DNA of 37,092 nt, taken from NCBI GenBank assembly GCA_032718475.1, contig JAUCBJ010001881.1, forward strand, positions 1 to 37,092. Reading direction: 5' to 3'. This document shows positions 6,521 to 37,020 of this stretch, one piece after another. The notes beneath the pieces were generated by a model. The model ran no database searches, was not told the origin of the DNA, and was given only the letters and a program-made list of their open reading frames with translations. The position numbers were made by a program, and so were the translations under genes. Within the stretch, counting starts at the first letter, position 1. Every line of letters starts with the position of its first letter. Source of the DNA: Nemertoderma westbladi (taxonomy: Eukaryota > Animalia > Xenacoelomorpha).

Positions 6521-9500
6521 ACCCCATGTGAGATATCCCACCCAATCTGATACAATGCCACCCAATGTGATACATTGCCTCCCAATGTGATACAATGATA
6601 CCCAATGTGATACAATGATACCCAATGTGATACAATGATACCCAATGTGATACAATGCCTCCCAATGTGATACAATGCTACCCAATGTGATACAATGCTA
6701 CCCAATGTGATACAATGCCACCCAATGTGATACAATGCCACCCAATGTGATACAATGCCTCCCAATGTGATACAATGCCTCCCAATGTGATACAATGCTA
6801 CCCAATGTGATACAATGCCTCCCAATGTGATACAATGCTACCCAATGTGATACAATGCTACCCAATGTGATACAATGCCACCCAATGTGATACAATGCTA
6901 CCCAATGTGATACAATGCCACCCAATGTGATACAATGCCTCCCAATGTGATACAATGCCTCCCAATGTGATACAATGCTACCCAATGTGATACAATCCTA
7001 CCCAATGTGATACATTGCCTCCCAATGTGATACAATGCTACCCAATGTGATACATTGCCTCCCAATGTGATACATTGCCTCCCAATGTGATACAATGCTA
7101 CCCAATGTGATACAATGCTACCCAATGTGATACAATGATACCCCATGTGATACAACGCCACCCAATGTGATACAATGCTACCCAATGTGATACAATGCCA
7201 CCCAATGTGATACATTGCCTCCCAATGTGATACAATGCTACCCAATGTGATACAATGCTACCCAATGTGATACATTGCCTCCCAATGTGATACAACGCCA
7301 CCCAGTGTGATACAAGGCTACCCTATGTGATACAACGCCACCCAATGTGATACAATGCCACCCAATGTGATACATTGCCTCCCAATGTGATACAATGCTA
7401 CCCAATGTGATACAATGCTACCCAATGTGATACAATGATACCCAATGTGATACAATGCTACCCAATGTGATACAATGATACCCAATGTGATACAATGCTA
7501 CCCAATGTGATACAATGATACCCAATGTGATACAATGCTACCCAATGTGATACAATGATACCCAATGTTATACAATGATACCCAATGTGATACAATGCTA
7601 CCATACAATGCCACCCAATGTGATACAATGATACCCAATGTGATACAATACTACCCAATGTGATACAATCCTACCCAATGTGATACAATGCCACCCAATG
7701 TGATACAATGATACCCAATGTTATACAATGATACCCAATGTGATACAATGCTACCCAATGTGATACAATGATACCCAATGTTATACAATGATACCCAATG
7801 TTATACAATGCTACCCAATGTGATACAATGCTACCCAATGTGATACAATGATACCCAATGTTATACAATGATACCCAATGTGATACAATGATACCCAATG
7901 TTATACAATGCTACCCAATGTGATACAATGATACCCAATGTTATACAATGCTACCCAATGTGATACAATGATACCCAATGTTATACAATGATACCCAATG
8001 TGATACAATGCTACCCAATGTGATACAATGCTACCCAATGTGATACAATGCTACCCAATGTGATACAATGCCACCCAATGTGATACAATGCCACCCAATG
8101 TGATACAATGCTACCATATAATGCTACCCAATGTGATACAATGCTACCATATAATCCTACCCAATGTGATACAATGCCACCCAATGTGATACAATGCCAC
8201 CCAAAGTGATACAATGCTACCCTATGTGATACAACGCTACCCAATGTGATACAATGATACCCAATGTGATACAATGATACCCAATGTCATACAATGATAC
8301 CCAATGTGATACAATGCCACCCAATGTGATACAATGATACCCAATGTTATACAATGATACCCAATGTGATACAATGCTACCCAATGTGATACAATGATAC
8401 CCAATGTGATACAATGCTACCCAATGTGATACAATGCCACCCAATGTGATACAATGATACCCAATGTTATACAATGATACCCAATGTGATACAATGCTAC
8501 CCAATGTGATACAATGCTACCCAATGTGATACAATGATACCCAATGTGATACAATGATACCCAATGTTATACAATGATACCCAATGTGATACAATGATAC
8601 CCAATGTGATACAATGCCACCCAATGTGATACAATGATACCCAATGTTATACAATGATACCCAATGTGATACAATGCTACCCAATGTGATACAATGCTAC
8701 CCAATGTGATACAATGATACCCAATGTTATACAATGATACCCAATGTGATACAATGATACCCAATGTTATACAATGCTACCCAATGTGATACAATGATAC
8801 CCAATGTTATACAATGCTACCCAATGTGATACAATGATACCCAATGTTATACAATGATACCCAATGTGATACAATGCTACCCAATGTGATACAATGCTAC
8901 CCAATGTGATACAATGCTACCCAATGTGATACAATGCCACCCAATGTGATACAATGCCACCCAATGTGATACAATGCTACCATATAATGCTACCCAATGT
9001 GATACAATGCTACCATATAATGCTACCCAATGTGATACAATGCCACCCAATGTGATACAATGCCACCCAATGTGATACAATGCTACCCTATGTGATACAA
9101 CGCTACCCAATGTGATACAATGATACCCAATGTGATACAATGATACCCAATGTGATACAATGCCACCCAATGTGATACAATGCCACCCAATGTGATACAA
9201 TGATACCCAATGTGATACAATGCCACCCAATGTGATACAATGATACCCAATGTTATACAATGATACCCAGTGTGATACAATGATACCCAATGTGATACAA
9301 TGATACCCAATGTGATACAATGATACCCAATGTGATACAATGATACCCAATGTGATACAATGCTACCCAATGTGATACAATGCCACCCACTGTGATACAA
9401 TGCTACCCTATGTGATACAACGCTACCCAATGTGATACAATGCTACCCAATGTGATACAATGATACCCAATGTGATACAATGCTACTCAATGTGATACAA

Positions 9501-9601
9501 TGATACCCAATGTTATACAATGCCACCCAATGTGATACAATGATACCCAATGTGATACAATGCCACCCAATGTGATACAATGATACCCAATGTGATACAA
9601 T
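6521..9601. repeat. 20-bp minisatellite (cccaatgtgatacaatgcta and variants), roughly 150 copies
   Basis: Continuous array; variants end in gcta, gata, gcca or gcct; a few 7-bp-deleted units. Confidence 0.99.
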
Positions 9602-10208: not shown

Positions 10209-10326
10209 TTATTTATTGTAATGCTGTTTGGTACTGCGTGGTCGAATAGCGGAGGAACGGCTACGTGATTGGGCAGCTTGTTCTTGAAGCTGATACGCCA
10301 TTGGATGGATCTTGAAACCAAACAAT
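10209..10326 (-). CDS. CSNK2B: casein kinase II beta, coding exon 5 (last)
   Basis: ttttag| acceptor, then (R)LFGFKIHPMAYQLQEQAAQSRSRSSAIRPRSTKQHYNK*, matching the conserved RLYGFKIHPMAYQLQ; phase fits exon 4. Confidence 0.95.
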
Positions 10327-13087: not shown

Positions 13088-13187
13088 CTGGGTACATAAA
13101 TATTTGGACTCCTTGCCGGTCGCAGTTCTGGGTGCACCATGTACAACATATGGGGGAACCCGGTGCCAAAGTAAGCTCCGTCAATAT
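13088..13187 (-). CDS. CSNK2B: casein kinase II beta, coding exon 4
   Basis: (H)[32 protein letters not shown](R); donor AG|GTAAGT; the acceptor is AC with an upstream U12 branch point. Confidence 0.96.
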
Positions 13188-13274
13188 GTAAAAACAGATG
13201 GTTAAGGAAAAATATCGTAGTTCGAATTATCAGGATTATAATTATCAGAATTATAAGGAATATATTATTGTAAC

Positions 13275-13740
13275 GCCTAGACTTTATTGTATGAATATTA
13301 GCAGTTTATCAAAAATGGAGACCATCTGGAAATCAGTCCTCAACGACTCTACCTGAACGCAGACTACGATTCAGTGGACACTGCTTGAGAAGTAAGGACT
13401 GGGTCATACCAGATCTACTTTTGGGGACAGAGTAAAGCGCGGATCCGGATTCTACATTTAACATTGTCCCTACGGAAGTCGATTTTTTTTACATTTTTAT
13501 AACACCCAAAAATAAAAATATAACCTGTTCTATTGACTTTAGTTTATTGCTTTGGTTAAAATAATCTGCCACTGTAACCTGCTCCTTTCCCTTAATTGAT
13601 AATTTTGGAATCCGGATCCGCGTTTTAGACCTACCCCTACTTTTGTAACGCAACACAAGGAAAGCGTAGCTGTGGACGACCTGATGTAACATATATAGAC
13701 CAACTTGAAAGCGTTACTGGACTATGGAGAATAGGAAAGG
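13275..13740 (+). mobile_element. 3' fragment of an RTE-type LINE, interrupted by a MITE
   Basis: Translates to RRLRFSGHCLRSKD...DLLL and, after the insert, QGKRSCGRPDVTYIDQLESVTG, paralleling the C-terminus of the RTE ORF at 31876-32940 (NRLRFAGHCFRR...NLVLW). Confidence 0.75.
13424..13636. mobile_element. small MITE with 9-bp TSD (Mutator-like)
   Basis: CTACTTTTG duplicated at 13415-13423 and 13637-13645; imperfect TIRs GGG...TAAAGCGCGGATCCGGATTC / GAATCCGGATCCGCGTTTTA...CCC. Confidence 0.85.
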
Positions 13741-14474
13741 CCACATTTCCATTGTCGGAGTTCAATCAGACAGTGTAAGTTGTATGAATATTAAAAACGA
13801 CTAAACGAGAGTGTTTAAGATATTCATGAATAGGATATTCCCATTATTTATCCACAGACACTAACCCAATCGCATCCTTTTGACAGTATTACGTACGATA
13901 CAATGTTATTGAGATCGATTGCGAATGAACTCGTTAAGAAAAAAGAGTATTAGCTAGAGTAGTATCTATAATTACAAAACTCCGCCGGCGGAGGGACATT
14001 ACTCTTTCTGGGAAAACAGTTAGGATAAGAAGATTATTCAAAGAAGCCCGTAATGCTGGTCGGGTGGGTTATAATGAACATAAGATATATCCTACTGCGA
14101 AGGTGTAATTTGAATGTGGTAATAATTAGGTAAAACTTAGGAAGTACAGAAGTAATTAGGTGTCTGTATGTTGCATGTTGTCACGCCCCAGGAAGCAATT
14201 GACGTAAAGAATCCGTGCGCACGATAATAAGGGACACGAATTTAAAGTAAAATTAATTATTACAACAGTGATATCTGTACAGAGTGGGCTTGGTAGTAAA
14301 CCACTAAAGGTGTCGCGATTAATTTGAGTGAGGGAGATATTTATATGGTGGAAGCGGAAACTATCGGCTGTTACAATAACAACAACTTATCTTCTAGTTT
14401 GTATTTACAAGTAGAAGTTGAAATCAGAGTGCATTCATTTATAGGTGAAGTAAAGTGAAGTTTTCTTCGCCTGT

Positions 14475-14670
14475 TAATAATAATAAGTTAGGCCAGGGAT
14501 TACGCACAAAGTCTGACTGCGACTTGTGCGGTCCCCCCAGAACTATACTCCCCAGAGGTAGATGGTTCACATCTAGAATGGAAGGCATAGATGCGCCCTG
14601 GCTGGTTCCTTTAAAGCATTAGAAATCGAACCTGGCCCGCTTGCAGGGAATGAACCCAAGACCTCCGGAG
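14475..14670 (-). mobile_element. 5'-truncated tRNA-derived SINE-like element
   Basis: Minus strand: B-box-like GGAGGTCTTGGGTTCATTCCC, a 3' hairpin CGCACAAGTC-gcagtca-GACTTTGTGCG and a short (TTA)n tail. Confidence 0.55.
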
Positions 14671-15074
14671 AAGATAATACAACGGATTTAAAAACAAGTG
14701 CTATGAAACCATATTTAGTAATTCACAACACACAAAGAGAAAATCGAGTCCAATCATTCACTCTCTGATGGGGTCATGCTATAAATAGAAGACGCCACAC
14801 TTAAACTAAAACAAGCACTAAAATTTAGACACAAAAAGTACCAAACCATAAAAATTATTAAAATTTCACAAAAACGATAAACGTTTAACTAAAGTAAAAC
14901 CAGTTGTAATGTAATATTAAACTTTGGAAAAGAAAATATTTTTGAATGTCTAACACGATAAATAAAACACTAAAAAATAGAGTGCACTTAAAAGGGTTGT
15001 TCATAAATGACGTCACGGCCAATGGGGTGGGGAAATTGGGAGAGTGAGAAAAGCTGAAGTTATATAATATCGAG

Positions 15075-16085
15075 TTAATTATTACAACAATCAATATTAG
15101 ATATTTCGGATGATTTCACTGATGTATGCGGCACGTGAGTGGCAAAGTGTTTTCTAAGAGTATTTATAGCGAGTCTACTAATATTGTGATCATCTTGTTC
15201 TCTCCGCAGAGCATCTTCTAACTCCTTTATATCAACCTTCAACTTATCGACTACCACCATATGGGTGAAGCTTAACGACTCTCGAACATTCTTTAAATCT
15301 AATTCGTGACGTTTCGTTATATTAGTTAGTTTTAAACTCAGTTTGTCTGTCTGTGTCAATGAGTTCGTGAGTTCGGTGTTGGCTTTAGATAATCGGGATT
15401 GTAATTCTTCAACATTATTGCGGAAATGCTCCAACTCTTTCTGCCGCAGTTCAGCGCTTTTATTGATTACTTTAGATTGTTTCTCCAATTCGCGGGATTT
15501 GGCGCCACTTTCTCGATTTTTCCTTATCGATTTCACCAATTTACTATTTCTGTCTTCCAGTAAATCCGTGGTTTGTTTTAATTGGCGCTCTAACTCGGAT
15601 ACCTTAGCGACGAGCTCCCTATTGGTTGTTACTAAGGACTTGTTTACATCACTTAACGACGTATAATGACGTCGCAATGCGTGCAGCTCCGCGGGCGACC
15701 ATATAGACCAGTCGTGGTTGTCGGGTTGCAGTGCGTGACGTCGCCCTGGGAACTGAGTTTTCACTGACCTCCGTTTAACTTTTGTAACCCGACATGCCGG
15801 CTCGGCATCCGTCGTAACATCTACGGTTTGGGTGTCGCGAGGAATCGATTTACTTCCTGGTGGGTAAAATCTATCAATTTTTTTCAGTATTTCGTAGAGT
15901 TCCTTGGTTTCCTCATTATCGACGGAGGCCGGAGTGGTTTTCCCGTCCGCGGGAACGTAGAATTCGGATAACGAGGTGTCGATTTTATGCGCGAAATCCT
16001 CCAAACTGTATTGGTAAGTCGGAGCGAAGAGTTTCCCGATCCAATTAGAATCATATTCTGTGATGCCATCAGTTTCGTTTGCCAT
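15075..16085 (-). CDS. single-exon coiled-coil protein, CCDC160-like (336 aa)
   Basis: Intact ORF with a long C-terminal coiled coil. N-terminal W..LFAP..S.ED, central W...EL..LR and C-terminal A...LRKHF resemble CCDC160 as I recall it; not verified by search. Confidence 0.65.
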   Translation of the reverse strand: MANETDGITEYDSNWIGKLFAPTYQYSLEDFAHKIDTSLSEFYVPADGKTTPASVDNEETKELYEILKKIDRFYPPGSKSIPRDTQTVDVTTDAEPACRVTKVKRRSVKTQFPGRRHALQPDNHDWSIWSPAELHALRRHYTSLSDVNKSLVTTNRELVAKVSELERQLKQTTDLLEDRNSKLVKSIRKNRESGAKSRELEKQSKVINKSAELRQKELEHFRNNVEELQSRLSKANTELTNSLTQTDKLSLKLTNITKRHELDLKNVRESLSFTHMVVVDKLKVDIKELEDALRREQDDHNISRLAINTLRKHFATHVPHTSVKSSEISNIDCCNN

Positions 16086-16448
16086 TGGCTGATGTAGCAG
16101 TGCCGAATATTCGATTTAAATAAAGTATTTTAATTTATTCTACCGGTACTAATCAAACTCCAAAGGATATAGCGCAATGGGAATAGGGTGAGCACGCGAC
16201 AGGTAAGGTTGGTAGCTTGGTACCGGTACTGTTACTGGTATTCTGTGCTTTTATATTGGCATAGTTGTCGGTTGCCTGGCAATCAATTTCAAACCAAAGA
16301 CAATACAGTTTGGCGGGATATTTAACTTTGAAACAGTTGGGCTGGGTACTGGGAATAAATTGCAGTACTTACTACAGTCGACAGTTTACAGTAGTGGTAC
16401 CAGAGCTACAAGCTACCGAATTCTGGTGATAAGAGATATGAATTAATA
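16086..16448. promoter_or_regulatory. putative bidirectional promoter between the CCDC160-like gene and PIG-W
   Basis: 363 bp between divergent ATGs; RFX X-box-like GTTGCCTGGCAAT at 16271-16283; E2F-like TTTGGCGGGA at 16309-16318. Confidence 0.55.
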
Positions 16449-17289
16449 ATGGTTCAATTTAAAGATGAAAGGGAGAGATTTGTGTCAAATTTAAGAGGAA
16501 CTACAATTGTCGAGATATTTCTACACATCGCAATTATTCCAGCATTGTTCCTCTTACAGTCTGCGGTGTCCACCACTCTACTACCACCGGTGCGATCCCA
16601 ATGGATTCACTTCGCAGTCGACTACCTATGTCTTAACGTGGCCCTCGCTCTAAGCGTCACCGTTCTAGCCGATAACATTGCGGAGCTGATCGGCTTCACG
16701 GTAGTCGTATCGATGTTTCTCCTGTGCGTCCAGCGGTTATTCATAACCGACCGTAGGCTCGAGCCCTACCATGGAGGGGAGCTTCTCTACGCGGATATGA
16801 AGCAATCCATCTCGCGATTTAAATGCGGCGCCAATGTTATTACCTCGCTGTGTATCCTGGCCGTCGACTTTCCGATATTCCCCCGCCGACTCGCTAAAAC
16901 CGAGACCTACGGTACCGGGTTGATGGACTTCGGCGTGAGTTTTTTCGTCGTTTGTAACGGGATAGTCGCCCCTGAAGCCAGACCGAACAAGATCTCACGG
17001 CGGGAGGCCGTGGGTAAAGCGATAAATTCATCAGTGCCCCTCCTATTCCTCGGAATGATTCGCGTTGTGGCGTTAAAGACGGTCGATTACCAGGAACACG
17101 TGTCGGAATACGGAACTCATCTCAACTTCTTCTTTATATTAGCCGGAGTAAAGATAATCTCGAGTCTTATATTCACTGTATTCCAACTTTCCTGGGCTTT
17201 CCTCGTGGCCGTCAGTACCGCTATATTCCACGAGGTGGCGTTGGATTTCGGTATCCGTGACTACGTGCTTCTCACGGAGACCCGTTTAG
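16449..17289 (+). CDS. PIGW: PIG-W / GWT1 GPI inositol acyltransferase, exon 1
   Basis: Motifs FVSNLRGT, CILAVDFPIFPRRLAKTETYGTGLMDFGV and YQEHVSEYGTHLNFFF are characteristic of GWT1/PIG-W; ends ...TRL-G at TTTAG|GT. Confidence 0.95.
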
Positions 17290-17292
17290 GTC

Positions 17293-18079
17293 ACATGAGA
17301 GTAAAAACCCAAGCGATCATTTTGTGAACATCCAATGATATTGCCTGTTTTATAAATGCTTTAAGTTGTTATGGGATGTTCTGTTTGATTGGTTGTTATG
17401 TGATTTACTTGCTAATCTTGGTCAGTATTAAATACATTAAATCAACAAGCACTGATCAATGTGTACAGATATACAGTAGGAGTCAATATGTTTCACAGGG
17501 GGCATGATGATTTTCGAAAACATATCTTGGTAAATTAAAAGCACATCCCGGCGAATTAGCAATGATAATTATTAAGTGAGGGAAAGTATTATTTATATTA
17601 TATCTGTATTACATATTATTTACCTACATTAAATGTCCAGTTACTGCTCATCTGCTGTGTATTGTACGATATGACAGTATTTTACAAAGATTAAAGCTGT
17701 AAAGAGGCCTGGCCTCTACAGCTCTATCCTAGAACCTAGAGGAAGAGTCCATCAATTGTATTATAATCTTAAGTACATTCCTGCATTCTTTCATTATTAC
17801 GTCAGTCACTGCAAACAATCACTCATAGCGTCATTGGTAAGTGTGTTAGAGTCTGAGAGTACATGTAGAGCTACCGGCATACTGCTAATATTTAAATGTA
17901 AACTACTAAGTTACATTGATCGCTTGTTGATTTAGTGCATTTAATACTGGCCAAGATTAGCAAGTAAATCACACAACAACCAATCAAACAGAACATCCCA
18001 TAACAACTTAAAGCATTTATAAAACAGGCAATATCATTGGATGTTCACAAAATGATCGCTTGGGTTTTTACTCTCATGT
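17293..18079. mobile_element. non-autonomous DNA transposon with TIRs of about 165 bp and 9-bp TSD, inserted in the PIG-W CDS and forming the putative intron 17290-18085
   Basis: ACATGAGAGTAAAAACCCAAGCGATCATTTTGTGAAC... at 17293 is the near-perfect reverse complement of the sequence ending at 18079; GTTTAGGTC at 17284-17292 and 18080-18088. An alternative reading is CAC..GTG termini with a 7-bp TSD. Confidence 0.95.
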
Positions 18080-18085
18080 GTTTAG

Positions 18086-18600
18086 GTCTCCTCGACGCCA
18101 ATAGAGAAGGTCTCGTCGCTACTATGGGATACGTCGCCATCTACATCGCCGGAGTCTGGCTGGGTCGTCAGTTACTTAGCGCCCAGAATTTCTCCGGAGT
18201 TGTTAGTCGACTAGCTTGGACCTGTCTGTGGTCCACCTTGGCTTATATCTTAGTTGTGGAGAATATCGACGAGGTTTCCCGCAGGCTAGCCAACCTATCC
18301 TTTATAGTGGCTTCGATAATGCTCTCAGTTACAACAATATTTCTATTGACTTTCGTGAATATTATAGTTAAATCGACCTCGGCATTCCAACCACGCTCAT
18401 TGCTAGAAGACAGCGTTAATAGAAACGCCTTAGCTTATTTCCTATTAGCTAATTTGGGAACGGGTCTAGTAAATTTCCTTTTCGACACGATTTACACCAA
18501 AGATCATCACGCCTTCATAATTATCTCTATTTACATGTTTATTCTCAGTCTTATCATATTTTCTATGCATATGTCGAACATTTCCACTAAGTTCTGGTGA
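18086..18600 (+). CDS. PIGW: PIG-W / GWT1, exon 2 (joined protein 451 aa)
   Basis: GLLDANREG, VSRRLANLSF and NRNALAYFLLANLGTGLVN match the GWT1 domain; 841+515 nt = 452 codons in frame. Confidence 0.93.
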
Positions 18601-19652
18601 TGGTAAGCGTATATGTAAGAAAACATTAACAACGTATTGTATATATCATTTGTATATCAGTTCAATATCAAATAATGGAGGCTTATGGAAGCGTTAACAG
18701 CTAGCTGCAAGACAACATGGGGCGGTATTAACACACAGCGACTGGTGGATTCATTATCGGAATTGTAAACAGAACCAACAACATATAAGCCCAGACAGGA
18801 TGTTAGTTATCTTTATCTACCACCCCAGTCAGCCAACCAACTGATAAAACTATGTCAACATAATAGGTAGGAAGTTTGAGCTGCTGACATGTTGAATTAT
18901 TGGACTAGGTATTAATATTTGATTAGAGAATTGATTGCCTGTATCTCTATAAGATCTGTTCAAAGCCTGTTTAACAACTCACTTCTTGTGCAATTTAGTT
19001 TGATTCGGTATTCTATATAAATTAATATTGCCATATCTGTAGTTTATCATAAATTATTTCTTCCTAGAGTATCATTATTGCTGTACTTTAAAAATCAAAG
19101 CCCAATTGGCCAATTCCAAACCAATTGGAGTAGGTTATCTTATTTGTGGCAACGGAAAGAATCACCAACTGTATTTATTACTTATTTATTCTTCAGATTA
19201 ACCTATAGGCCTAATGTTGTTGACATTTATGTATATCATAGCGCGGTCAGAGCCAGATCAGCAAATACATATGGTCGATTTCCATTGAACCTTCATTGTA
19301 TGTCGCCTTTTCGTAGCAACAGATGACCTGCTACATCCATTTTATTAAATCCCAGCTGGAGGCGGAAGGAATTAAACGACGTTAAATTAATATTCAGGGG
19401 TCAATAAATATATGGAAATGTATTACTCTGAACGTGCTAACAAATCCAAGTAAATCATTAAATTATCCTTTTTGTGGCTTTTGTAGGTGATGTGTACTTA
19501 CAATCTATCAATTGCGACCTTTTTTGAGCGGATAGAGCCTAATCAATCAATCGAATTATAATAACGAATCCAATCAATTATACAATGTAAATAGGACAAT
19601 AAGATAATGCTCTCCATAGCGAAAAATATCAACCGGCCCTATTGGGGCTCGA

Positions 19653-19696
19653 ACCCGGTACCTAGGTTTCAAACTTCTGGTTATCATCAGCCGGGT
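19653..19696 (-). ncRNA. type I hammerhead ribozyme motif
   Basis: Minus strand: ACCCGG CTGATGA TAAC-CAGAA-GTTT GAAA CCTAGG TA CCGGGT. Perfect 6-bp stem I, both core boxes, short stem II, palindromic stem III (ACCTAGGT), predicted GUA cleavage between 19659 and 19658. Confidence 0.85.
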
Positions 19697-21857
19697 GATA
19701 TTTGATTCACCGCGTCACTCGCCCCACAACAATTCACTTATTATTATGAATCCAATCAATCGAATTATAATCACTAATCCAAGTGAATTTCTGTGAATTT
19801 CCATTAGATACCATTTTTTGTAAACCAATTGAATAATAATAATTGGCGATTCACTACCCCATTAACAGACGAGTGTGTGTTGCACAGCAGGGCTGTTTAT
19901 TACTTAACGAGGAAATTAATTTCTTCACTTTGGAAATTTGATGTACATTTATCGAGTTTTATGTATAGAAATGTTGAGCTCCACTCCAATCTACATAGAC
20001 AGTGATTTATTATGTTGCAATAGTTTACTTTTCAGTCCATATTACAAAAAATTGAGAATGTGATTATTAATTATTGTGTAAATGCGTTTTGAAATGGCAG
20101 TTACACATCAAATCCTCATGCAGTATTTAGGACGTTGATAGACACCATTAAAGTTAGTTACTTAGTTACTGAGACCTGACACTTCCCTATTCAGGACGCC
20201 GTGCCAAAGAGCTCTAAGTGGACTGAGAGACTTTATGATTCTGACTTTAGGACAGTCGTAATTAATTACATAGTTCTAGTCTGTGAAAAGAGCCATATAT
20301 CACAAGTTTTAAGTAATTTTTTTTTAATATTTGCAGCCTTTTATTGTAGGAGTACAAAAAATAAATAATAAATTAGAATATATTTTTTTACGCCAGGTTC
20401 ACAGTCACAGTTATTATTTATGTACTTATTGGTACTAGTTATTGCCTGTTGCTGAACCATTAACGGCTTATTAATTTATATTTTATTTACACTCTGCCAT
20501 ATCACCGAGGATCGGGGTACTCGAATTGACTTTCTTAGAACAGTGACCCCCGGGTAATGACCAGTCCACTATAGGGTGGGCCGTGGCCGTTCATATTGAA
20601 CCATAATACCATATTATTACACGAAATATATTGGACTATGAATTGGTTGGTATGCGGCGTCGAGCAATGTTTTTTCTTTCAATCAATTCATCACAACTTC
20701 CTTCAAACCTTATATTGTGACTGGACTTTTACTATTGAGATTTCTCACTCACTATTGAGATAGCGTGTATAAACAATATAATTTAATCGGATTTCACAGG
20801 TTCAGTTCCAAACATTTGATGTTGAATCTTTGCACTATGCATGTGATAGATTACCACGAACCACGACAATGCAAGAGTTCGGTTGAATCCTGGGTCAAGG
20901 ATGTAAAATGATAACTAAATAATAATATTATTGCATTGTACTAAATAACCTCTAGATATGAGACTAGGTCGGGATATTTCCATATCACTAAAGTTATTGT
21001 CAACGAAACTGTTTTGAGTTGGAGATAACATAAGTATATAACAGCAGGAGAGCTCATACTCGCACCAATGTGCCACTAATATAATCATCCTGTGCCCTGC
21101 CTATCACTATATATAATTCAATTGTTATCCATATCCAGTGTAGTTATTATATTAGAACCATATTTAGCCGGTTAGCAGTACTTAGCAACACTTTACAATA
21201 TATATATATATTATTTACTGAAGGATAGAATGTTTGGTTATATTTTACTTAGGAATTGATTTTTATTATTTAACGAAACGATTTATTCGGAAAATAGGAA
21301 GTAAATCAAACGATAAGCCGAAACTCAAACCGACCGATCGACTTAGCCATTACCCCGTCCAATTGACTTGCTGAAGTTTTAAGCCATTAACGAATTGCAA
21401 GAACACGACTCATACAAACTTCACTCACGCGTATCATCAAACAAACTACGTGCATTTGAATAAAGGAAAGCCCGGCCGGGTCACAGTCCATTTTTACATG
21501 TGCCGGTATCCCAAGCAATTCCTCGCAGCCAAATTGCAAATTAGATTACCCGGTTAACACGGGAGTTTTTAACTAACCTAACCGTAGCACGAGGCATTCA
21601 TTACGTTACAAAACAATCATTCAATATAAAGGTAAAGGGGACGTTATTTACAAGATTGTTTAAATATGTCAGCGAGATAACATTTAATTGGCTGCAAAGT
21701 GCAAATGTATCAGATAACAATTTATAAATATGATTGATTTCTTGAATACGTGGAAAATTATGTATAAATTGGAAAATATTCTCTATTGTAAAACATTTTG
21801 ATAGTCATTGCCGAATTTTTAACACGATTTGATTGGGTGATATTGAAAAATAACTAA

Positions 21858-22565
21858 ATGATGTACAGCGTTTTGTTGTCATTACTTGTTGCCATGGTAT
21901 CAACAACTGCGAGCGGTGAGAATGCCCCGGTATATATACGGCTAGTTAAACCGGATGCTGAGACCGCAGATGTGGAGTTTGTGGACGTCAAAGACCCGAT
22001 TACTGGCGACGTCATCGGAACAACCGCGGTGTTCGCCAACGAATCTGCCGTAGAACACAACTCTCTTAGAATTTCCTGTTTCACTCCGAGTCTAACAATG
22101 ATTAAAAGATTGATGGCATTGTATTATTTCAGCGATTTGGAAGGACCTTACCCGAATAACTTAAGAGACTTGACTGTTTATGGGAATAACCTTTCAACAA
22201 CATGGGAATTTAACGGAGTGCCTGTCTACGAGTGGATTCTAGGTATAGACGTGAAGCTCATTCGAGGTCGCTATTTCTACGTGTGCGGCGGTTACTCTAA
22301 TGAAACGTGGGTCTACTCGAGAGGGAAACACTATACAAACCAACCAAGGTATCGGGGGAACCAATCAAGGTATCAGGTAGTTCATGCAACCTTCCAAGAC
22401 TCAATGGAGAAAGAGCTAGATACGAGCGACAAAGATAAAAGTAAACCTAACAACCCAGCCGTTCAAAGGCTATACAATGAAGGGAACACTTTACAGCGAT
22501 GTTATTGGAGGAATGTTTTACTATCAATTCTTACACTATCTGTCTTTATTCTCTCGTATGAATAA
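21858..22565 (+). CDS. single-exon protein of unknown function with signal peptide and C-terminal hydrophobic tail (235 aa)
   Basis: Intact ORF; N-terminal MMYSVLLSLLVAMVSTTASG, C-terminal VLLSILTLSVFILSYE, several N-X-S/T sites; AATAAA overlaps the stop. Confidence 0.7.
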   Translation: MMYSVLLSLLVAMVSTTASGENAPVYIRLVKPDAETADVEFVDVKDPITGDVIGTTAVFANESAVEHNSLRISCFTPSLTMIKRLMALYYFSDLEGPYPNNLRDLTVYGNNLSTTWEFNGVPVYEWILGIDVKLIRGRYFYVCGGYSNETWVYSRGKHYTNQPRYRGNQSRYQVVHATFQDSMEKELDTSDKDKSKPNNPAVQRLYNEGNTLQRCYWRNVLLSILTLSVFILSYE

Positions 22566-23133
22566 ACATTGGGTATGATTATTGAGGGAAGATGTTTTGA
22601 CCTTTTTTTTAACGAGTCAACAGCTAGTCAATGGGATGTAAATATATTTCGGTTATAAAAAGGTTTACAACAGACAGACAGAAAAAACACGATATTTTGA
22701 TTGAAACCGTTATTAATGGCGGAACCATCATAAAGAACCTTAACTAATTGTGCTAACGTGCAGTAAGATTTGTAAGGCTTGAGTACACAATTGTAATTAT
22801 ATTTTAAATGTAAATGTTATGGTTGGGGTTTAGGGGCGGTTCAACAAAAAAGTTAAACAATTAATTTTGTTGCAGAATGTGACATTGAGGGTAACTTTAT
22901 ATAGCTGAAAACTCATGATGGCATTTATGAACGACCCTTAGTTTCAGTTACTATTTGAGAATACTCAAAAATTAATGTGAATTTGGAATTTTGAACAGCC
23001 CTGAACCCTGATGTTATAATAATTTACCCGTTTGGTATACCGGAAGTTAACTAATACTACATACCTGTAATATAACTTATTTATAATGAAACATTAATTT
23101 ATAATTTATACTTTCTGTGTAAGTAAAGGATAT

Positions 23134-23223
23134 GATGATGACGCGATGACTTTGGAGAGTAAACGTCTTGACATTTAGGGCAGTAAAGTTTTACCATAGC
23201 TTCCCCCGGTACATCTGATAATC
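23134..23223 (-). CDS. CSNK2B: casein kinase II beta, coding exon 3
   Basis: tttgcag| then (G)[29 protein letters not shown](H), with the second zinc-finger CPKC; followed by a U12 donor. Confidence 0.97.
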
Positions 23224-24469
23224 CTGCAAATAATAACATTTAATTTATAATATAAATGTTATATACCAGCACAGCACCACATACGGTACCAAAAATAGGA
23301 GATAATAATTATGCTGTTCTGAATTATTGTGATGGGCCCTTTTAAATGGTTATTTATTATCCTAGTCGAATTTATGGTGGTCTGGAGCATAAGGCACTGC
23401 CAAAATATTAGCCACCCATATCCATTCTCAAGCCCACCCGCATTAGGAGAAACCGTTGGGAATCTTTGATTAAAATAGGGTTGGCACTTGCCACAATATT
23501 TCAGTTTCAATTTTCCCTGATCTGTAAAAGGCAAGGTAATAGATAGACAGAGCATGATTCAGTGATCAGCAGCTGAATTTAGTGGGTGTCAAAAGGTTCA
23601 ACTTAGCTTCCTTCTTGTCTCCAGTTTTCCGCTGATTTTTGGACATGAAGAACAACATGTTCTGGCATTTAGCTCCCTGCTGATTGGCTTGAGCTACAAT
23701 AACATGTATACTCTACTACAATCATATATTTTAGTTGGCATAATATATATAGTAAAAAACAAGATCAATAATTATGTGCCGCCTTCTGTTCATTAACTCT
23801 TAGAGAACATAACAAAGGTAATTTATGTGATATACATTATTGAACAATTATATATGTTCGAATGGAACTCTATATAATAGAGTAATACATAATGATTAAT
23901 TGAAAGGTCGATGTACTTCAATGTGACAGCTACCTGCCTCTAGTATTATTATACAAAGGTCAATAATCCTCTAAAATGTAATCTGTGCATTAAAGTGAAC
24001 AATGCAATCAATAACGGGTGTTAAGTGATTGTCAATTTGAGGTCATCAAACCGCATCATCATGAAGCCGCGTTCTACCTAGAAAAAATTTGTCAAGGACT
24101 ACAGTATATCGGTTCATTATTATATTTAAATTTAAAATTCTTGCACGGCATTGTTTTTATAGCGAATAAAGAAAATATTTTGAGTGAAACTTGAACGAAG
24201 ACTTGAACAGTTGAACAGTCGTTCAACTGTCCACGAGAGCTTCTGCTAGAGATCTTCTTTCGCAGTGCGCTAGTTACAGTAGAGCAGTATTGGTTAAATT
24301 AAAAAAAGTAAAAAGAAGTTGTATAATTTGCAGTATACACACTACACAATACATACATAGTTAACGCGTAATCTGGTGAACATTTTTCTAAAACAACATC
24401 TCCACTTGGTGAAAACTCAAACGAGGTTTGCGATTGTCAGTTGTTCTTGGTGGGAATTATTTATGAAAT

Positions 24470-27988: not shown

Positions 27989-28180
27989 CTATAGGCATAA
28001 CTGGTTGGTTTTCGCAGTAAACCCGCATACAATGTCCGAAGTCTCCTTGCTGCCATTTCTCCACCATTTGTGCTATTCCTCTGTTGGTTAGAATGAACCG
28101 AGCGTGTATCAAACCATACAGCATCTCCGCTGCCTGTTCGATAAGATCGCTCTGGTTGGGATTTTCTTCCAATTCGTCGT
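27989..28180 (-). CDS. CSNK2B: casein kinase II beta, coding exon 2
   Basis: ctatag| then (D)[34 protein letters not shown]...[19 protein letters not shown](G); donor G|GTGGGT. Confidence 0.97.
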
Positions 28181-28399
28181 CTATAGTAAGAAGAAAAATA
28201 ATCTTCGGTTAATATCCACGTAGTTCTATTTGAACCTCACAGTCACAAGTAGTGCGCGTTGGTATTCAAAATACCTATACCGGTAAAAGTTTAAATATTT
28301 AAAAAATATATTTGCATTTCCGTAGACAGATTTAACGTCACGTCTATGTTTATAGTTTTATATTATTAAAATCAATTCACATAACATTATCGTCCGTCT

Positions 28400-28560: not shown

Positions 28561-28929
28561 TTATGATTATAAAATGTAATGGTTATTAATTTTAATAACA
28601 AAGCATTTTAGATAATTTTAGTAAATTTTTTGAGTTCTCTTTCTTCTATAATTTTAAGTGCACTGTGCAAATTGACAATAGCGGGTGCTAGTGCTGTCAA
28701 TTCCTGACATTGGTCAATTGGTTGGGGGGGGGGGGGGGGGGGGGGGGGGTGGTACTGGAAAAAGGGAAGGGGAGGGCAGAGCGGGGGAAACAAAACAACG
28801 CGGATTGGGTTTGTTTTCTCTGTCGATTACTTTATGTTTAGCGTTATTTGAGGTAAATATTATATAAGTATAAAAAATGTATATATATAAAATATAAATG
28901 TAAAAAAATATGTATATATAAAAAAAAAA

Positions 28930-30530
28930 GTATGGCCCCTGGGTGGTTCCGCAGGGGGCTAGAACTGGTTCTGAGTGTGTGTTTCCTATGTAGACGGTGT
29001 GTGTTCGGTTGTGTAGGAAACTTGTGACCAGTTTGTTACGAATCCTTCGTATACCGTAACTATCTAATTTATTTAGTAATATATTGTGCTGCAAGGTATC
29101 AAAAGCTTTTTAAGGTCTATCGATATTAAGAGTTCTGATTCTTGTAATTCTAGAATATTTATTAGTTTTTCAGTTACAGTAAGTATGGCGTCAGTAGTTG
29201 TAGTGCGCTTTCTGAAACCGTATTGATTGTGAGTAAATATTGAGTTTGAGTACTTGTCTAACTGACTGTCTGTAGTCTGTTAATCGGGTCAGTAATGTTT
29301 GACACTATGGCTTCATACCAACTCACTAAAATGATCAATACAATATGGGGGTTTTCGGGGTCGGTGATTTAATTTCTGCTGTCACTTTTAATGTTTGGTG
29401 GTATCTAAAATGCATGTCTGACAGTTTGTCTGTCTGTCTGGCTTCTGAATTTTGACGGACAAACTGATAGACGGAAAGACAGCGATAACTCGAGAACTAA
29501 AAAAGATATTGTCAAACCGTTTTAAGATTTGAACTCCCCAGTAAATTATGCATCAGATGAAATAAAAAACTAAAAATGTGAAAAGTTAACACAAGGAGGG
29601 GGTTACCCCCCCCCCCCCCCACCTTAATTAAAATTAGAATAATCGTAAAAGTAGCGGCTATCGGGAGGGTTAAAAATGCATGAGTAATTTTGGACTCTCA
29701 TAAATGTACCCAAGTAATCAGTAGTGCCTATTCCTGTCAGAAAAATACCGCCAGAAAAACACCAGGAGTAACTATATATTCGGTCACGTATATCTGTAGA
29801 TATATGGTCGATCAATGACTTTGAAATCTGTGTAATTCTAGATGGAACTATAATTGTTGAAGGGAGTGAGATTCTATGGTGTGTAAATATTTCATGGAGT
29901 TATTAGTTTTTTAAAAGGTCTATGTTAAAGTCCCCTGTTAAAATTATATATAGATTTTGAGTAAGTAAATTGTAGATGGTTTTATTTAAGTTTTCCAAAA
30001 AATTGTTTCATCCGATTAATGTTGGTTTTGCAATTTTTTTTTATCGTGATATACTAACCCACGAAGATTTGCAGTGTTCAATTGAAATGTCAGTTCGGTG
30101 TATGTAGTATGGCTGCACCCCTCGGTTTCGCTTTCCGTATTGTCGGTTGTCTGTAAGTGGAGTTGAGTAGCCATGTATCTTCAAAGTTGTAAGATCAGTA
30201 TTGTCAGTTAAAAACGTCTTAGTCAGTTAGTAAAAGCAAGTACGTCAAATTATTGGTCTAGATTAAAGTAATCAATTGTAGCTTACAATTTTTATTAAGG
30301 CTCCTACAGTTTAAGTGATATACTGAAAATGAGTTGTTTTTAGGGAGAACGTTAAATTTAGTATCAGAAAAATATTTACCGTGAGTATTATTAGAATCTA
30401 GGTTTTGATTTGGATCTATATTTTGAAATGTGGCGTCGTAATCGTCAAAGTTAGCAGGTAAGTCAAAGTCGACTTCGACATTGTAAAGCGAAAATCACAC
30501 GTTGTTTGGTTTTGGAGGCTCATAGGGTAA
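28930..30530 (-). mobile_element. decayed CR1/L2/Jockey-group LINE (endonuclease and RT fragments) with nested insertions
   Basis: Minus-strand QYGFRK...KAFDTLQHNILLNKLDSYGIR...GTTQG at about 28935-29230 and ILTGDFNIDLL at about 29915-29945; frameshifted. Confidence 0.75.
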
Positions 30531-30619: not shown

Positions 30620-32958
30620 GTCTCTGGAAATGTATTGTTTTCGGCTGGAACCCAGTTTAAGAAGCGAACTGGAAAGCTATGGACTCATAGTGGAGCCAGT
30701 GGTCACAAGTGACAGATAGACCACATCCTGTTTCGTAGGAAATACAGGAGCTCTATACAAGACTGTAATGCATTTACACTTCGACCCTTCTCCAGTGATC
30801 ACCGCCTTATTGTGGCCAAGGTAAGACTTAGTATTCGTGCCAGCAGAACAACGAAATCTGCCTTGCCGCGGCATGACTGGTCCTCTCTGTTGCAGCAGCC
30901 AAGTGTGAGATCCAGCTTCACACTAAAGCTGAGCAACAGGTATGAGGTTCTTGCCTCTGAGGCGGCAGATCACTGTGAGGGCTATACTGCCTTCACAGAA
31001 GCAGTGAAGTTAGCAGCTGCAGAAACAGTTCCTGTATAACCTCGAAACAGGAAAAGGGCCCCCTGGACTGACAACAAAATTCAGAAGTGCCGAAATGACC
31101 CCTATAAGGCGCAGAAAGAGTCCCCACTCAAACAGACTACAGCGGCCAAGAATGCAGTTAGGGCTGCATCTAGGTCCCTGAACAGGCAGTACTCTGTTAA
31201 TCTACAGGAGCTAATAAACCAACAGGTTGATGCCATCAATGATGCTGACGACAGCAGGCAATCATCCCAGGCATGGAAATCGATCAACTTGCTTACTGGT
31301 CGGAAAAGCCAACCAACCACCAAGGTTAAGGCTGAATCACCAGCCGATCGCCTCAATGGTTGGAAGGCCTACTTTGAAAAGCTCCTCAATAATGACAGGG
31401 TATTGCCTGATAACTTTATAGAAGTAAAAGTGTCTTAGTCTGTAGGCCTACTCCCAGAAATTCCCATTGGCGATATCTCCCTTGAAGAAGTGAATGCTGC
31501 TGCAAAGAGCATTAAGACAAATCGTGCCAGTGGAGTAGATGGTGTTCCCCCGAGGTCTTTAAAATACCCGAGTGTTTAAAGCTCATCTATCCCATCATAG
31601 TAGACATGTGCCGAACAACAAGAGTCCCACAAGAAATGAAAACAAATAAGTTGGTGCCAGTTCCCAAGAAGGGCAACCTAACACTCTATGGTTCTTTTCG
31701 GGGAATCTCATTGATCTCGATTGCTGCAAAGCTATACAATAGAATTATATTAAATCGCATCAGGGATCCCATTGAGAGACTGATCCGTGGAAATCAGAAT
31801 GGGTTCCGTAGAGGTCGTGGGACCATAGAGCCCATTTTGGCACTTAGAATGATAATTGAAGATTGAAGATCACGTATGCTCAGCATACTTTCATTATATG
31901 GGATTCCTGATGAAATTATTGCAGCAATCAGATCAGTATACGATGGTTCGACAACATTTGTGTCTACTGTTGACGGTGACACAGAACCATTTGAAGTGTT
32001 ATGGGGCGTCCTCCAGGAAGACACACTTGCACCATTCTTGTTCATAATTGTGGTTGACTATGTTCTACGCATGTCCTTAGATCATCATAATGATGGTGGG
32101 GTGATGATAACTCCACCTACTGGCTCCAGAAGACGAGGAAATCCTGCCAAGTACCTAACTGATCTAGACTTTGCTGATGACTTAGGAGTACTCTCAGAAT
32201 CACTAGAGGGAGCCCAGCGGCTCCTCAGCTCATTAGAACATGCTGCTTCTAGTGTTGGTCTTTTTATTAACTCCAGAAAGACCAACATTTTGACAGTTAA
32301 CTTTGAAAGTCCTCAGCAAGTCTCTGATCGGATGAGCATAAGCTCAAAGGATGGTATGCTTGAGCATGTGGACGACTTCTGTTACCTGGGATCATGGATC
32401 CGGAAGTCAGGTGAGGCCCTTCGAATACGCAAGGGAAAGGTATGGGCAGTCTTGAATAGGCTTTCCAGGATTTGGAAGTCACCGAGAATTAATCGGAAAC
32501 TTAAGGTCCGATTATTTAGAGCAGCAGTAGTTCCAGTACTCCTCTATGGGAGTCCATGCTGGGCTCTAACTGCTGAGGACACCAAATCTCTGGATGGCAC
32601 ATTCGCAAGAATGCTACGCCTGGTTCATTGTGTCAAGTACAATGCACACATCTCCAACCAGACACTATATAACATTGGAGGTGTCTCATTGGTTCCCCCA
32701 AGCTTGACACTAGAACAAAATCGCCTCCGCTTTGCAGGACATTGCTTTCGCCGTGAGGACCAGCCAGTACATAATCTTGTTCTTTGGCAGCCTCATGTAG
32801 TGAATAAGCATGGTGGACCGCCCATGATTTTCTTGGGACGCATCTTAAAGGACACTGGCCCTGAAGATGAGGATGATCTAGCAAATGTCATGGGTGATAG
32901 GGAGTTGTGGCGGCGCAATTTTGTCGACAAGCCGGCATAGCATTCTTAAACACACACC
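30620..32958 (+). mobile_element. 5'-truncated RTE-clade LINE, inactive, antisense in the first CK2 beta coding-region intron
   Basis: End of the endonuclease domain, RT motifs VPVPKKG, FRGISL, NQNGFR, GVLQEDTLAPFLF, DLDFADD, FCYLGS; stops, frameshifts and loss of the D..KAFD block near 31862; short (CA)n tail. Confidence 0.9.
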
Positions 32959-33594: not shown

Positions 33595-33769
33595 CTGGTT
33601 CGAGGTCTAAGATCATATCGAGTGCCTGCCTGTAATGAGGAACTTGTTCGTTGAGGCCAGTTAAATTGAACTTGTCTTGAATATAATCTTCGTCTACTTC
33701 ACAAAAAAATTCATTGCCCCGAAGCCCACAAAACCAGGATATCCAAGAAACTTCTTCCGAACTACTCAT
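33595..33769 (-). CDS. CSNK2B: casein kinase II beta, coding exon 1
   Basis: [58 protein letters not shown] is the canonical animal CK2 beta N-terminus; phase-1 donor G|GTTTGT. Confidence 0.98.
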
Positions 33770-35379: not shown

Positions 35380-37020
35380 AGTTTTATAGCTTTCTTAAAT
35401 TTATACAGATTTATTGATTGTCGAACAGCGGTTGGTAGAGCATTCCAGACCTCTGGTGCCAGTGCCATATCACTCGTATAGATTGTTTAGCAACCAGTAA
35501 TCGTGTTCGGGGGACTGTGCACTTCCCACGTGCAGTCATTGTTGGTGGCGGTGCGCGTTCGGTGTTGGTGGGTTGTAGATGTGAATGTAAGAAGTGATGT
35601 GAACATGTCTAGAGGTCCTGTATAATCTTTTCTATGTGAGTGTAGCAAAGTGTTTGCTACCTGTTTGATGTATATGGACCGTATAGTTAGTGGGTGGAAA
35701 TTAGGGTTTCCCCTACTGATTACAATACATTCATTCTGCTTTCTGTTGTAATTTATGTAATGTTTTCAATGTTGTATCGGGTGAGTCAGTAGGTGACCGA
35801 GGTTTTCGTCGGCGTCTTGGGTGTGTGTGTCCGCGTCCGTGGTGTGAGTGTCCGGGGTGTGAGTGTTCGGGGTGTGAGTGTCCGGGGTTGTGTTGGGAGG
35901 AGACTGGGGGCATTGTACTGAATGATTTTGTTGACCATACGGCATTACAATACTGTAAGTAAGGGTCAACTAGTGTATTATATAGTATAATTAGTATTTC
36001 GGGCTTTACAAAGTTTTTTATTTTGTTAATTATACCGATGTTGCGGCTGAGTTTATTGAGAATGTGATAATGTGATATGGTATTTCCATGTCAAGTGTTC
36101 ATTCATCTATTAGAAATGCCAAGGAATTTAATCACTTTACATCGGTCAATAATATAATTATCGATTTTGATTGCGGTTTCAGGGTGGATGGAGCCTTATT
36201 TGTTTATTATGTGTATGGAATATTATGTAATTTGTTTTTTTTTTAATTTAGGGTCAATCTGCTACTGTATTAAGACTGAACCACTCAGTGAAAAGTTCTT
36301 CGTTTATGTCAGCAATTACTCGGTTTAAGTCCGTATCTGATTTGAATAAGTTAGTGTCATCAGCGAATAGTATAAACTTTACATGGTTTGATATATTGGT
36401 GACGTCATTCGTGTACAGTATATAATGAAAAGTAGAGGGCTAAGTAGACTACCCTGGGGCAGTCCTATTACAATTGTTAATCGAGCCGACTTTCCTGTTC
36501 TTATGGTAACAAACTGAACACGATCAGTGAGGTAGTTTGTTATCCAAGCTAGAACTATATCGGCTATTCCGTATCGTTGTAGTTTTTTAATAAGTATCTG
36601 GTGGTTCACTGTATCGAAGGCTTTGGACAGATCCAATGACACTCCTACAGTGAACTCACCCTTGTCGAGAGACCCTGTAACGTGCTCCAGTAGTGTTAGT
36701 ACACGTAGTGCATGTTGGGTTGATTGATTATGTCTGAAGCCAAATTGCGATGGCGAGTTTAGTTAAATAGTCAGGAAGTTCTGTATGTACGATTTTTTTA
36801 GAATTTTAATTTCGAGAAGTAACAGAGAACAGATATTGGCCTGTAGTTTTCTACAAAGAGGTAGGATTTGCAGCTTTGTATAAAGGTGTAACGCAAGCAA
36901 TTTTAATTTGTTTTGGCCTAGTTCCCCTGCAAAGGGAAAGGTTTATAATGTAAGCAAGTGGTTCTGCAATTAATGAAATTGTTTGTTGGGTGTGCACTTG
37001 ATGCAGCTAATTTATCATAC
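35380..37020 (-). mobile_element. decayed CR1/L2-like LINE (RT to 3' end), interrupted at 37020 by an LTR
   Basis: Minus-strand LDLSKAFDTVNH, GLPQGSLLSPLLF and LFADDT motifs with frameshifts; a 15-bp tandem repeat at about 35820-35890. Confidence 0.85.

Follow-up and report, generated by a model that had tools for sequence, protein, structure and literature searches.

The window analysed here, the whole 37,092-nt contig JAUCBJ010001881.1 of Nemertoderma westbladi, carries on its minus strand a gene for CK2 beta (224 amino acids; 86% identity to the best homologues retrieved), one of whose introns starts with AT, ends with AC and encloses three other genes. We hold with fair confidence to the following reading as a whole: this 9,946-nt intron is spliced from CK2 beta, likely by the minor spliceosome; it is likely old, kept here and in amphioxus and lost in vertebrates and many animals; and the nesting of the genes inside it is likely incidental. 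The intron, its signals and its flanking exons are

13188..23133, minus strand: phase-1 AT-AC intron of CK2 beta, 9,946 nt, with contigs that join the exons on either side
23125..23133, minus strand: U12-type 5' splice site ATATCCTTT, the first intron base being 23133
13188..13212, minus strand: U12-type branch sequence TTTTTCCTTAAC, then 13 nt that close with the terminal AC
23134..23223, minus strand: CK2 beta exon 3, 90 nt, stopping past base 1 of the third His codon (record 8 of sequencing run X5)
13088..13187, minus strand: CK2 beta exon 4, 100 nt, donor GTAAGT

Read on the minus strand, the intron begins with ATATCCTTTAC from 23133 and ends with TTTTTCCTTAAC-CATCTGTTTTTAC at 13188, and TTTTTCCTTAACCATCTGTTTTTAC stands directly 5' of the 100-nt exon 13187-13088; its signals are, together, ATATCCTTT, the branch sequence TTCCTTAAC and the terminal AC. 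The consensus RTATCCTT is found at the very first base, TTCCTTRAC lies near the 3' end, and no long pyrimidine tract separates the branch site from the AC. Exons 23223-23134 and 13187-13088 join in frame and restore the HHH-I-DG motif. Taken alone, neither motif exceeds what chance would give in an AT-rich window of 37 kb: ATATCCTTT occurs twice against 0.56 expected, a count reached in 12 of 100 shuffles, and the branch motif followed by YAC occurs once against 0.20 expected (17 of 100 shuffles). The intron is real because the motifs sit at the codon where the frame is restored and because spliced contigs exist. A preliminary description of this DNA, made from the letters alone, had placed an AT-AC intron with U12 signals at exactly these coordinates, which is confirmed, the motifs being where it put them and being used in spliced contigs. 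Motifs of this type are recognised by the U11 and U12 small nuclear ribonucleoproteins (snRNPs), and these signals make the U11/U12 minor spliceosome the likely agent of removal. A search of the window against Rfam gave no match.

Eight sequencing runs, of unrecorded type, match the window, and five of them were compared with it. Contigs of runs X2 and X3 tile the intron, behaving like DNA, while contigs of X4 (study P3) and X5 (study P2), which come from different studies, join exons and behave like RNA. Record 8 of X5 (1,139 nt, zero mismatches) skips exactly 9,946 nt and is anchored by 96 nt to the left and to the right of the gap, five letters being ambiguous. Six cut positions yield the same message; AT..AC are the only recognised ends among them, and none is GT-AG or GC-AG. 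In X4, 12-nt loose ends at both intron borders spell the opposite exon (two contigs each), and loose ends occur at other CK2 beta exon borders as well. The transcript junction 23134/13187 that had been suggested as a check is thus present in the X5 contig, with the X4 loose ends concordant. Splicing at nearby GT-AG sites, which the preliminary description had named as grounds for giving up the intron, appears in none of the joints listed: 13150-13240 holds a single AG and offers two in-frame options, each of which deletes the conserved RHHHIDGA. A second ATATCCTTT stands at 16162-16170 on the minus strand, 85 nt upstream of the start codon of a nested gene similar to CCDC160, in the promoter region that this gene likely shares with nested PIG-W. 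It might have served as another donor for 13187 or as a site of recursive splicing, but was rejected: no AC precedes it, no joint is listed for it and the motif count is within chance.

The position of the intron can be compared with that of other CK2 beta genes. Cumulative coding-exon borders in the window fall at 175, 367, 457 and 557; the splice sites of human CSNK2B lie at c.175, c.291/292, c.367 and c.557/558, and its splice variants at c.367+2, c.557+1 and c.558-3 (PMC8965697, PMC9237577). Human c.368-557 is a single 190-nt exon and so equals the sum of the 90- and 100-nt exons here. The preliminary description had stated this equivalence correctly, the human variants matching the cumulative borders 367 and 557. 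CSNK2B gave no match in eight supplementary files that list genes with minor introns in human and mouse; MAPK14 is present there.

Of 228 CK2 beta proteins retrieved, 168 hold the motif of the HHH-I-DG region, which is unbroken in 160, broken two codons later (HHHT-G) in six, and read as HHH-IL in two, both from Branchiostoma. Left unspliced, the window's own frame would read HHH-ILY, the same H-I-L as in Branchiostoma P0047 and P0054. The latter continues HHH-ILSYD...-DGAYFG, and P0009, a third Branchiostoma model, lacks the 90-nt exon, so that the public models P0047, P0054 and P0009 are all faulty at the codon of the AT-AC intron, by read-through, 13 extra residues and a lost exon. Since codon, frame and first bases are the same, we take these breaks to be the footprint of gene finders failing at the same AT-starting intron. 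The expectation that gene finders would stumble over this gene has accordingly come true in a distant relative, three of the three amphioxus models retrieved showing a break at precisely this codon.

The simplest reading of these comparisons, and a likely one, is an old intron that amphioxus shares and that deletion has removed many times; the preliminary description had not noted the sharing. Minor introns are commonly lost by deletion and typically lie in phase 1 (PMC10639083). The alternative is two separate gains, one here and one in amphioxus, or a recent origin in this lineage. It can draw on the 160 unbroken proteins of 168, many of them derived from mRNA and hence silent on introns; on the best 80 of 192 metagenome loci, which show no break, in a ranking that favours unbroken genes and so informs on absences only; and on the genomic open reading frame P0123, which shares a segment with an acoel protein and is unbroken. 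An upstream AG acceptor together with an intact HHH-DG stretch was found in 18 of 62 parsed metagenome loci. Against it speaks the agreement of two distant lineages in codon, phase and AT-type start, as does the view that gain of minor introns is very rare (PMC10639083), and we judge it decidedly unlikely. The six proteins that break after HHHT-G (P0131, P0155, P0184, P0189, P0199 and P0202) are genomic open reading frames with a GT-type break 6 nt downstream of the AT-AC position; the break could be a slid conversion from U12 to U2 type, as described in nematodes (PMC2846911), or a separate intron that entered at an AG|G site.

Among described systems, a close likeness is to the U12-type AT-AC introns of animals, for instance those of Trichinella (PMC2846911), which share the RTATCCTT 5' site, the TTCCTTAAC branch near the AC, phase 1 and outright loss in related lineages; the present one differs in lying in CK2 beta, a gene missing from the human and mouse minor-intron lists searched, in its 9.9 kb and in the three genes inside. 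Branchiostoma CSNK2B, known from the three protein models only, resembles it in the break at the same codon and in the H-I-L read-through. As to the nesting, a close parallel is an intron of NF1. That intron is a major-class one. It too holds three protein-coding genes (OMG, EVI2A and EVI2B) within one intron of a conserved host, but there all three are antisense (PMC4394429), whereas here one is on the host strand, in a head-to-head pair. Length alone is not exceptional: the minor intron of MAPK14 measures 11.7 kb in mouse and 23.6 kb in human, according to the minor-intron supplementary tables, and against these a 10-kb minor intron does not stand out.

Long minor introns and three-gene introns are each known, and their combination was not found in the literature searched. 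Within papers and the supplements named next, neither a U12-type CK2 beta intron nor any gene inside a minor intron turned up, though bioRxiv supplements, data archives or online databases of minor introns may list one; the supplements of PMC11347168, PMC7367187, PMC6717393, PMC10639083 and PMC2846911 gave no match to CSNK2B or casein kinase.

The nested genes and the insertion found in one of them are

15075..16085, minus strand (that of the host): CCDC160-like gene, a single open reading frame of 336 amino acids, covered by X4 record 1
16449..18600, plus strand: PIG-W/GWT1 gene, 451 amino acids once 17290-18085 is omitted, with X4 contigs to 19614
17293..18079, no strand assigned: inverted-repeat element of 787 nt with arms of 159 nt (97% identical), flanked by 9-bp duplications GTTTAGGTC at 17284-17292 and 18080-18088
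21858..22565, plus strand: orphan gene, 235 amino acids, with a spliced 5' exon ending at 21091 and a GT..AG intron to 21699 (X4 record 7)

All three reading frames lie within 13188-23133 and are covered by X4 records 1, 4 and 7; X4 contigs over nested genes take up 5,497 of the 9,946 intron bases. The preliminary description had announced three nested genes on these strands. They are present and covered by RNA-like contigs, and what needs amending is the gap in PIG-W, which is a transposon insertion and not an ordinary intron. Strand has contig support, through a GT..AG joint of its own on the plus strand, only for the orphan (X4 record 7); for the other two it follows from the reading frame.

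The CCDC160-like protein gave no match in a word-based search, and its relatives came from a full scan of 1.84 billion proteins, six of them at E values up to 0.001. One of these is a cluster named CCDC160 homologue, from Lytechinus, and another includes a member named chromosome segregation ATPase, the others carrying no name. The Lytechinus protein aligns in phmmer over residues 5-324 at E 7e-6 and 23-25% identity, and the alignment has in common an N-terminal W..LF.P, a middle WS..E...LR and a C-terminal LR.HFA; similarity to CCDC160 thus runs over the full length, beyond coiled-coil bias. PIG-W is recognised by PF06423 at positions 2-268 and 252-435 of 437, with 243.8 and 131.5 bits against a curated cut-off of 29.6, and by yeast Gwt1 (8xij) at E 3e-36. 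The two genes stand head-to-head with their start codons 364 nt apart, and one X4 contig spans both. Such a contig does not prove that one transcript covers both genes; its likely cause is that transcripts from a shared promoter overlap at their 5' ends. The plus-strand CAG|GTAAGG near 16202, a candidate donor for a 5' intron of PIG-W, was discarded, as X4 record 1 continues unspliced through the site.

The orphan protein has hydrophobic N- and C-terminal ends, with a predicted signal peptide and a predicted tail of the type that receives a glycosylphosphatidylinositol (GPI) anchor. It belongs to no Pfam family; its best PDB match has an E value of 0.52, an immunoglobulin-like assignment at 0.87 in the Atlas is a lead only, and its single-sequence fold has a pLDDT (predicted local distance difference test) score of 36.8. 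Its contig extends to 23093, 40 nt short of the 5' splice site of the host intron. A gene with a predicted GPI-type tail thus adjoins PIG-W, a GPI-anchor enzyme, which is probably a coincidence.

The element in PIG-W has the anatomy of a transposon, with inverted ends, a target duplication, a pile-up of many contigs and an empty site, and is a recent, still polymorphic insertion: the DNA-like run X3 joins the empty site and the DNA-like run X2 enters both arms. The window itself holds no second copy. If the element is retained, the frame stops after 292 amino acids; a cut from the GT at 17290 to the AG at 18085 restores the 451 amino acids exactly. The 9-bp duplication contains AG|GT, and the donor, GTCACA, is weak. 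In introners the target-site duplication is used for both splice sites (PMC9860276), and the PIG-W element resembles them in its inverted ends and in a duplication whose AG|GT could be the source of both; it differs in being at one site, in having an empty allele and in its weak donor, the splicing of the filled allele being only predicted. X4 omits the element, as does X3, and may thus represent the empty allele; X5 has no contig over the site. A damaging allele is more likely than a settled intron, and we are doubtful that splicing of the element is adequate to preserve the function of PIG-W.

Other repeats bear on the assembly of the interval. Very high-copy short repeats lie in the AT-AC intron at 13384-13650, 14516-14620 and 19544-19780, with a depth in the tens of thousands in the DNA-like runs, and one of them has 31-nt inverted ends (13433-13627). 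The X2 and X3 contigs listed cover the intron save for 13384-13650, 14516-14590, 17322-18051 and 19633-19704, all of them high-copy repeats. A single contig, record 13 of X2 (19705-23794), links the orphan with exon 3.

To assemble these pieces into a history: the contigs show exon 3 joined to exon 4 at the AT-AC ends with HHH-I-DG restored, the 5' and branch motifs presumably being read by the U11 and U12 snRNPs in the usual way. Given the same position, phase and first bases in the models of three Branchiostoma species, the intron would predate the split of this lineage from chordates, and wherever a 190-nt exon now stands it would later have been deleted precisely. The nested genes are transcribed, as the contigs show, PIG-W and the CCDC160-like gene likely from a shared promoter, and the nesting likely has no regulatory link to minor splicing. 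We consider the nesting incidental because the functions of the nested genes are unrelated and because they lie in the largest intron, which is the usual pattern: it is in the longest intron of a host that nested genes preferentially lie (PMC11694760), and most are unrelated to their host (PMC4394429).

Several points weigh against this account. X4 and X5 are labelled 'DNA?', and we infer that they are RNA from joins that hold exons only; the same junction would be witnessed even by a processed gene copy in DNA. The amphioxus evidence consists of protein models, in which H-I-L fits C-AT ATC CTN and the branch site and AC are unseen, and H-I-L is carried by just two of the motif-bearing proteins, so that retention is rare. 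No listed contig bridges from the block of the CCDC160-like gene and PIG-W to the host exons, the gaps being 72-267 nt, and since short-read contigs fail to bridge 13384-13650, 14516-14590 and 19633-19704, the position of this block rests on the assembly. Mis-assembly in the interval, which the preliminary description had raised, is unlikely. Its specific form would be a real but shorter intron into which the block was put across the repeats, of which 14516-14590 and 19633-19704 are unbridged among the contigs listed; yet these two gaps are just 75 and 72 nt, unique contigs from two DNA-like runs abut both in the same order, and the orphan gene and exon 3 share one X2 contig, which leaves this version highly improbable.

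Other alternatives accept the intron and differ over how it is removed or what its contents do. A few AT-AC introns are U2-type, and the major spliceosome might in principle remove this one too; with both U12 consensus elements perfect and no long pyrimidine tract before the AC, we give this almost no credence. Minor splicing and the transcription of the nested genes could also be functionally coupled, as the preliminary description suggested, although the contigs, which are unstranded, speak neither for nor against it. Slow minor splicing and the nested promoters would then affect each other and CK2 beta output would depend on the nested genes, the convergent polymerases of PIG-W and the orphan and the same-strand 3' end of the CCDC160-like gene delaying or shortening CK2 beta transcripts before U12 reaches a branch site 9.9 kb away. 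The extent of nested-gene coverage in X4 and the orphan contig ending so near the 5' splice site would suit such interference, which has been reported for other nested genes (PMC3192792). Among the joints, loose ends and truncated forms listed, however, none indicates it; CK2 beta is fully spliced in X4 and X5, the apparent age of the intron exceeds that known for the nesting, and neutral explanations are favoured for the persistence of minor introns (PMC10639083). We think coupling unlikely. X4 lacks cover at 13688-14375, and contig depth is no measure of retention; AATAAA is not depleted on the host strand, at 1.5 per kb in the AT-AC intron against 1.1, 1.5 and 5.1 in the other introns. A bolder combination, in which an AT-AC intron older than the split of animals and fungi has turned into a gene cluster whose three promoters set the speed of CK2 beta splicing, with the PIG-W transposon becoming a new intron via its 9-bp duplication, would strike us as quite unlikely.

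If the account of an old intron with incidental nesting is right, CK2 beta joins the genes likely to have carried a minor intron in early animals. The case also shows a route by which minor introns vanish from catalogues, every amphioxus model retrieved being wrong at this codon, and it offers a natural test of minor intron definition across 10 kb of active transcription, with one gene on the same strand, and hence of the bearing of slow minor splicing on nested genes. The transposon in PIG-W, polymorphic and splice-ready, interrupts a gene needed to make GPI anchors and is either a damaging allele or a new intron in formation. Present understanding is not overturned by any of this unless coupling or the new intron is shown.

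The remaining coding exons of CK2 beta are

33595..33769, minus strand: first coding exon, 175 nt, ATG at 33769, donor GTTTGT
27989..28180, minus strand: exon 2, 192 nt, flanked by GT-AG introns, PF01214 at E 9.9e-23
10209..10326, minus strand: last coding exon, 118 nt including the stop, its start spelled by X4 and X5 loose ends at 13088

In gene order the coding introns measure 5,414, 4,765, 9,946 and 2,761 nt, the AT-AC intron being the largest of the four and the three others GT-AG. Many CK2 beta proteins of animals have an N-terminus 100% identical to the product of the first exon, and the end of this exon is spelled by an X4 loose end at 28182. What exon 2 (27989-28180) encodes is divided in humans between exons 4 and 5 by an intron at c.291, which CK2 beta lacks here. 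The C-terminal tail of the protein is nearest to that of an acoel, and next to those of Ptychodera and Patiria, so that by this tail its owner is likely a relative of xenacoelomorphs or ambulacrarians and not a chordate.

Directly downstream of CK2 beta, 6540-9601 holds a 20-bp satellite in about 155 copies. Broken pieces of reverse transcriptase of the long interspersed nuclear element (LINE) type lie at 30713-32940 (plus strand), 28714-29109 (minus) and 36379-36762 (minus), with PF00078 matches at 31867-32940 and 36379-36762; the pieces at 30713-32940 and 28714-29109 are located within CK2 beta intron 1. At the other end of the window, an open frame of more than 620 amino acids at 2-1864 on the minus strand continues past the edge, carries an AEAERKAA repeat and matches no Pfam family above cut-off; it is perhaps gag-like, from a retroelement, or a coiled-coil gene.

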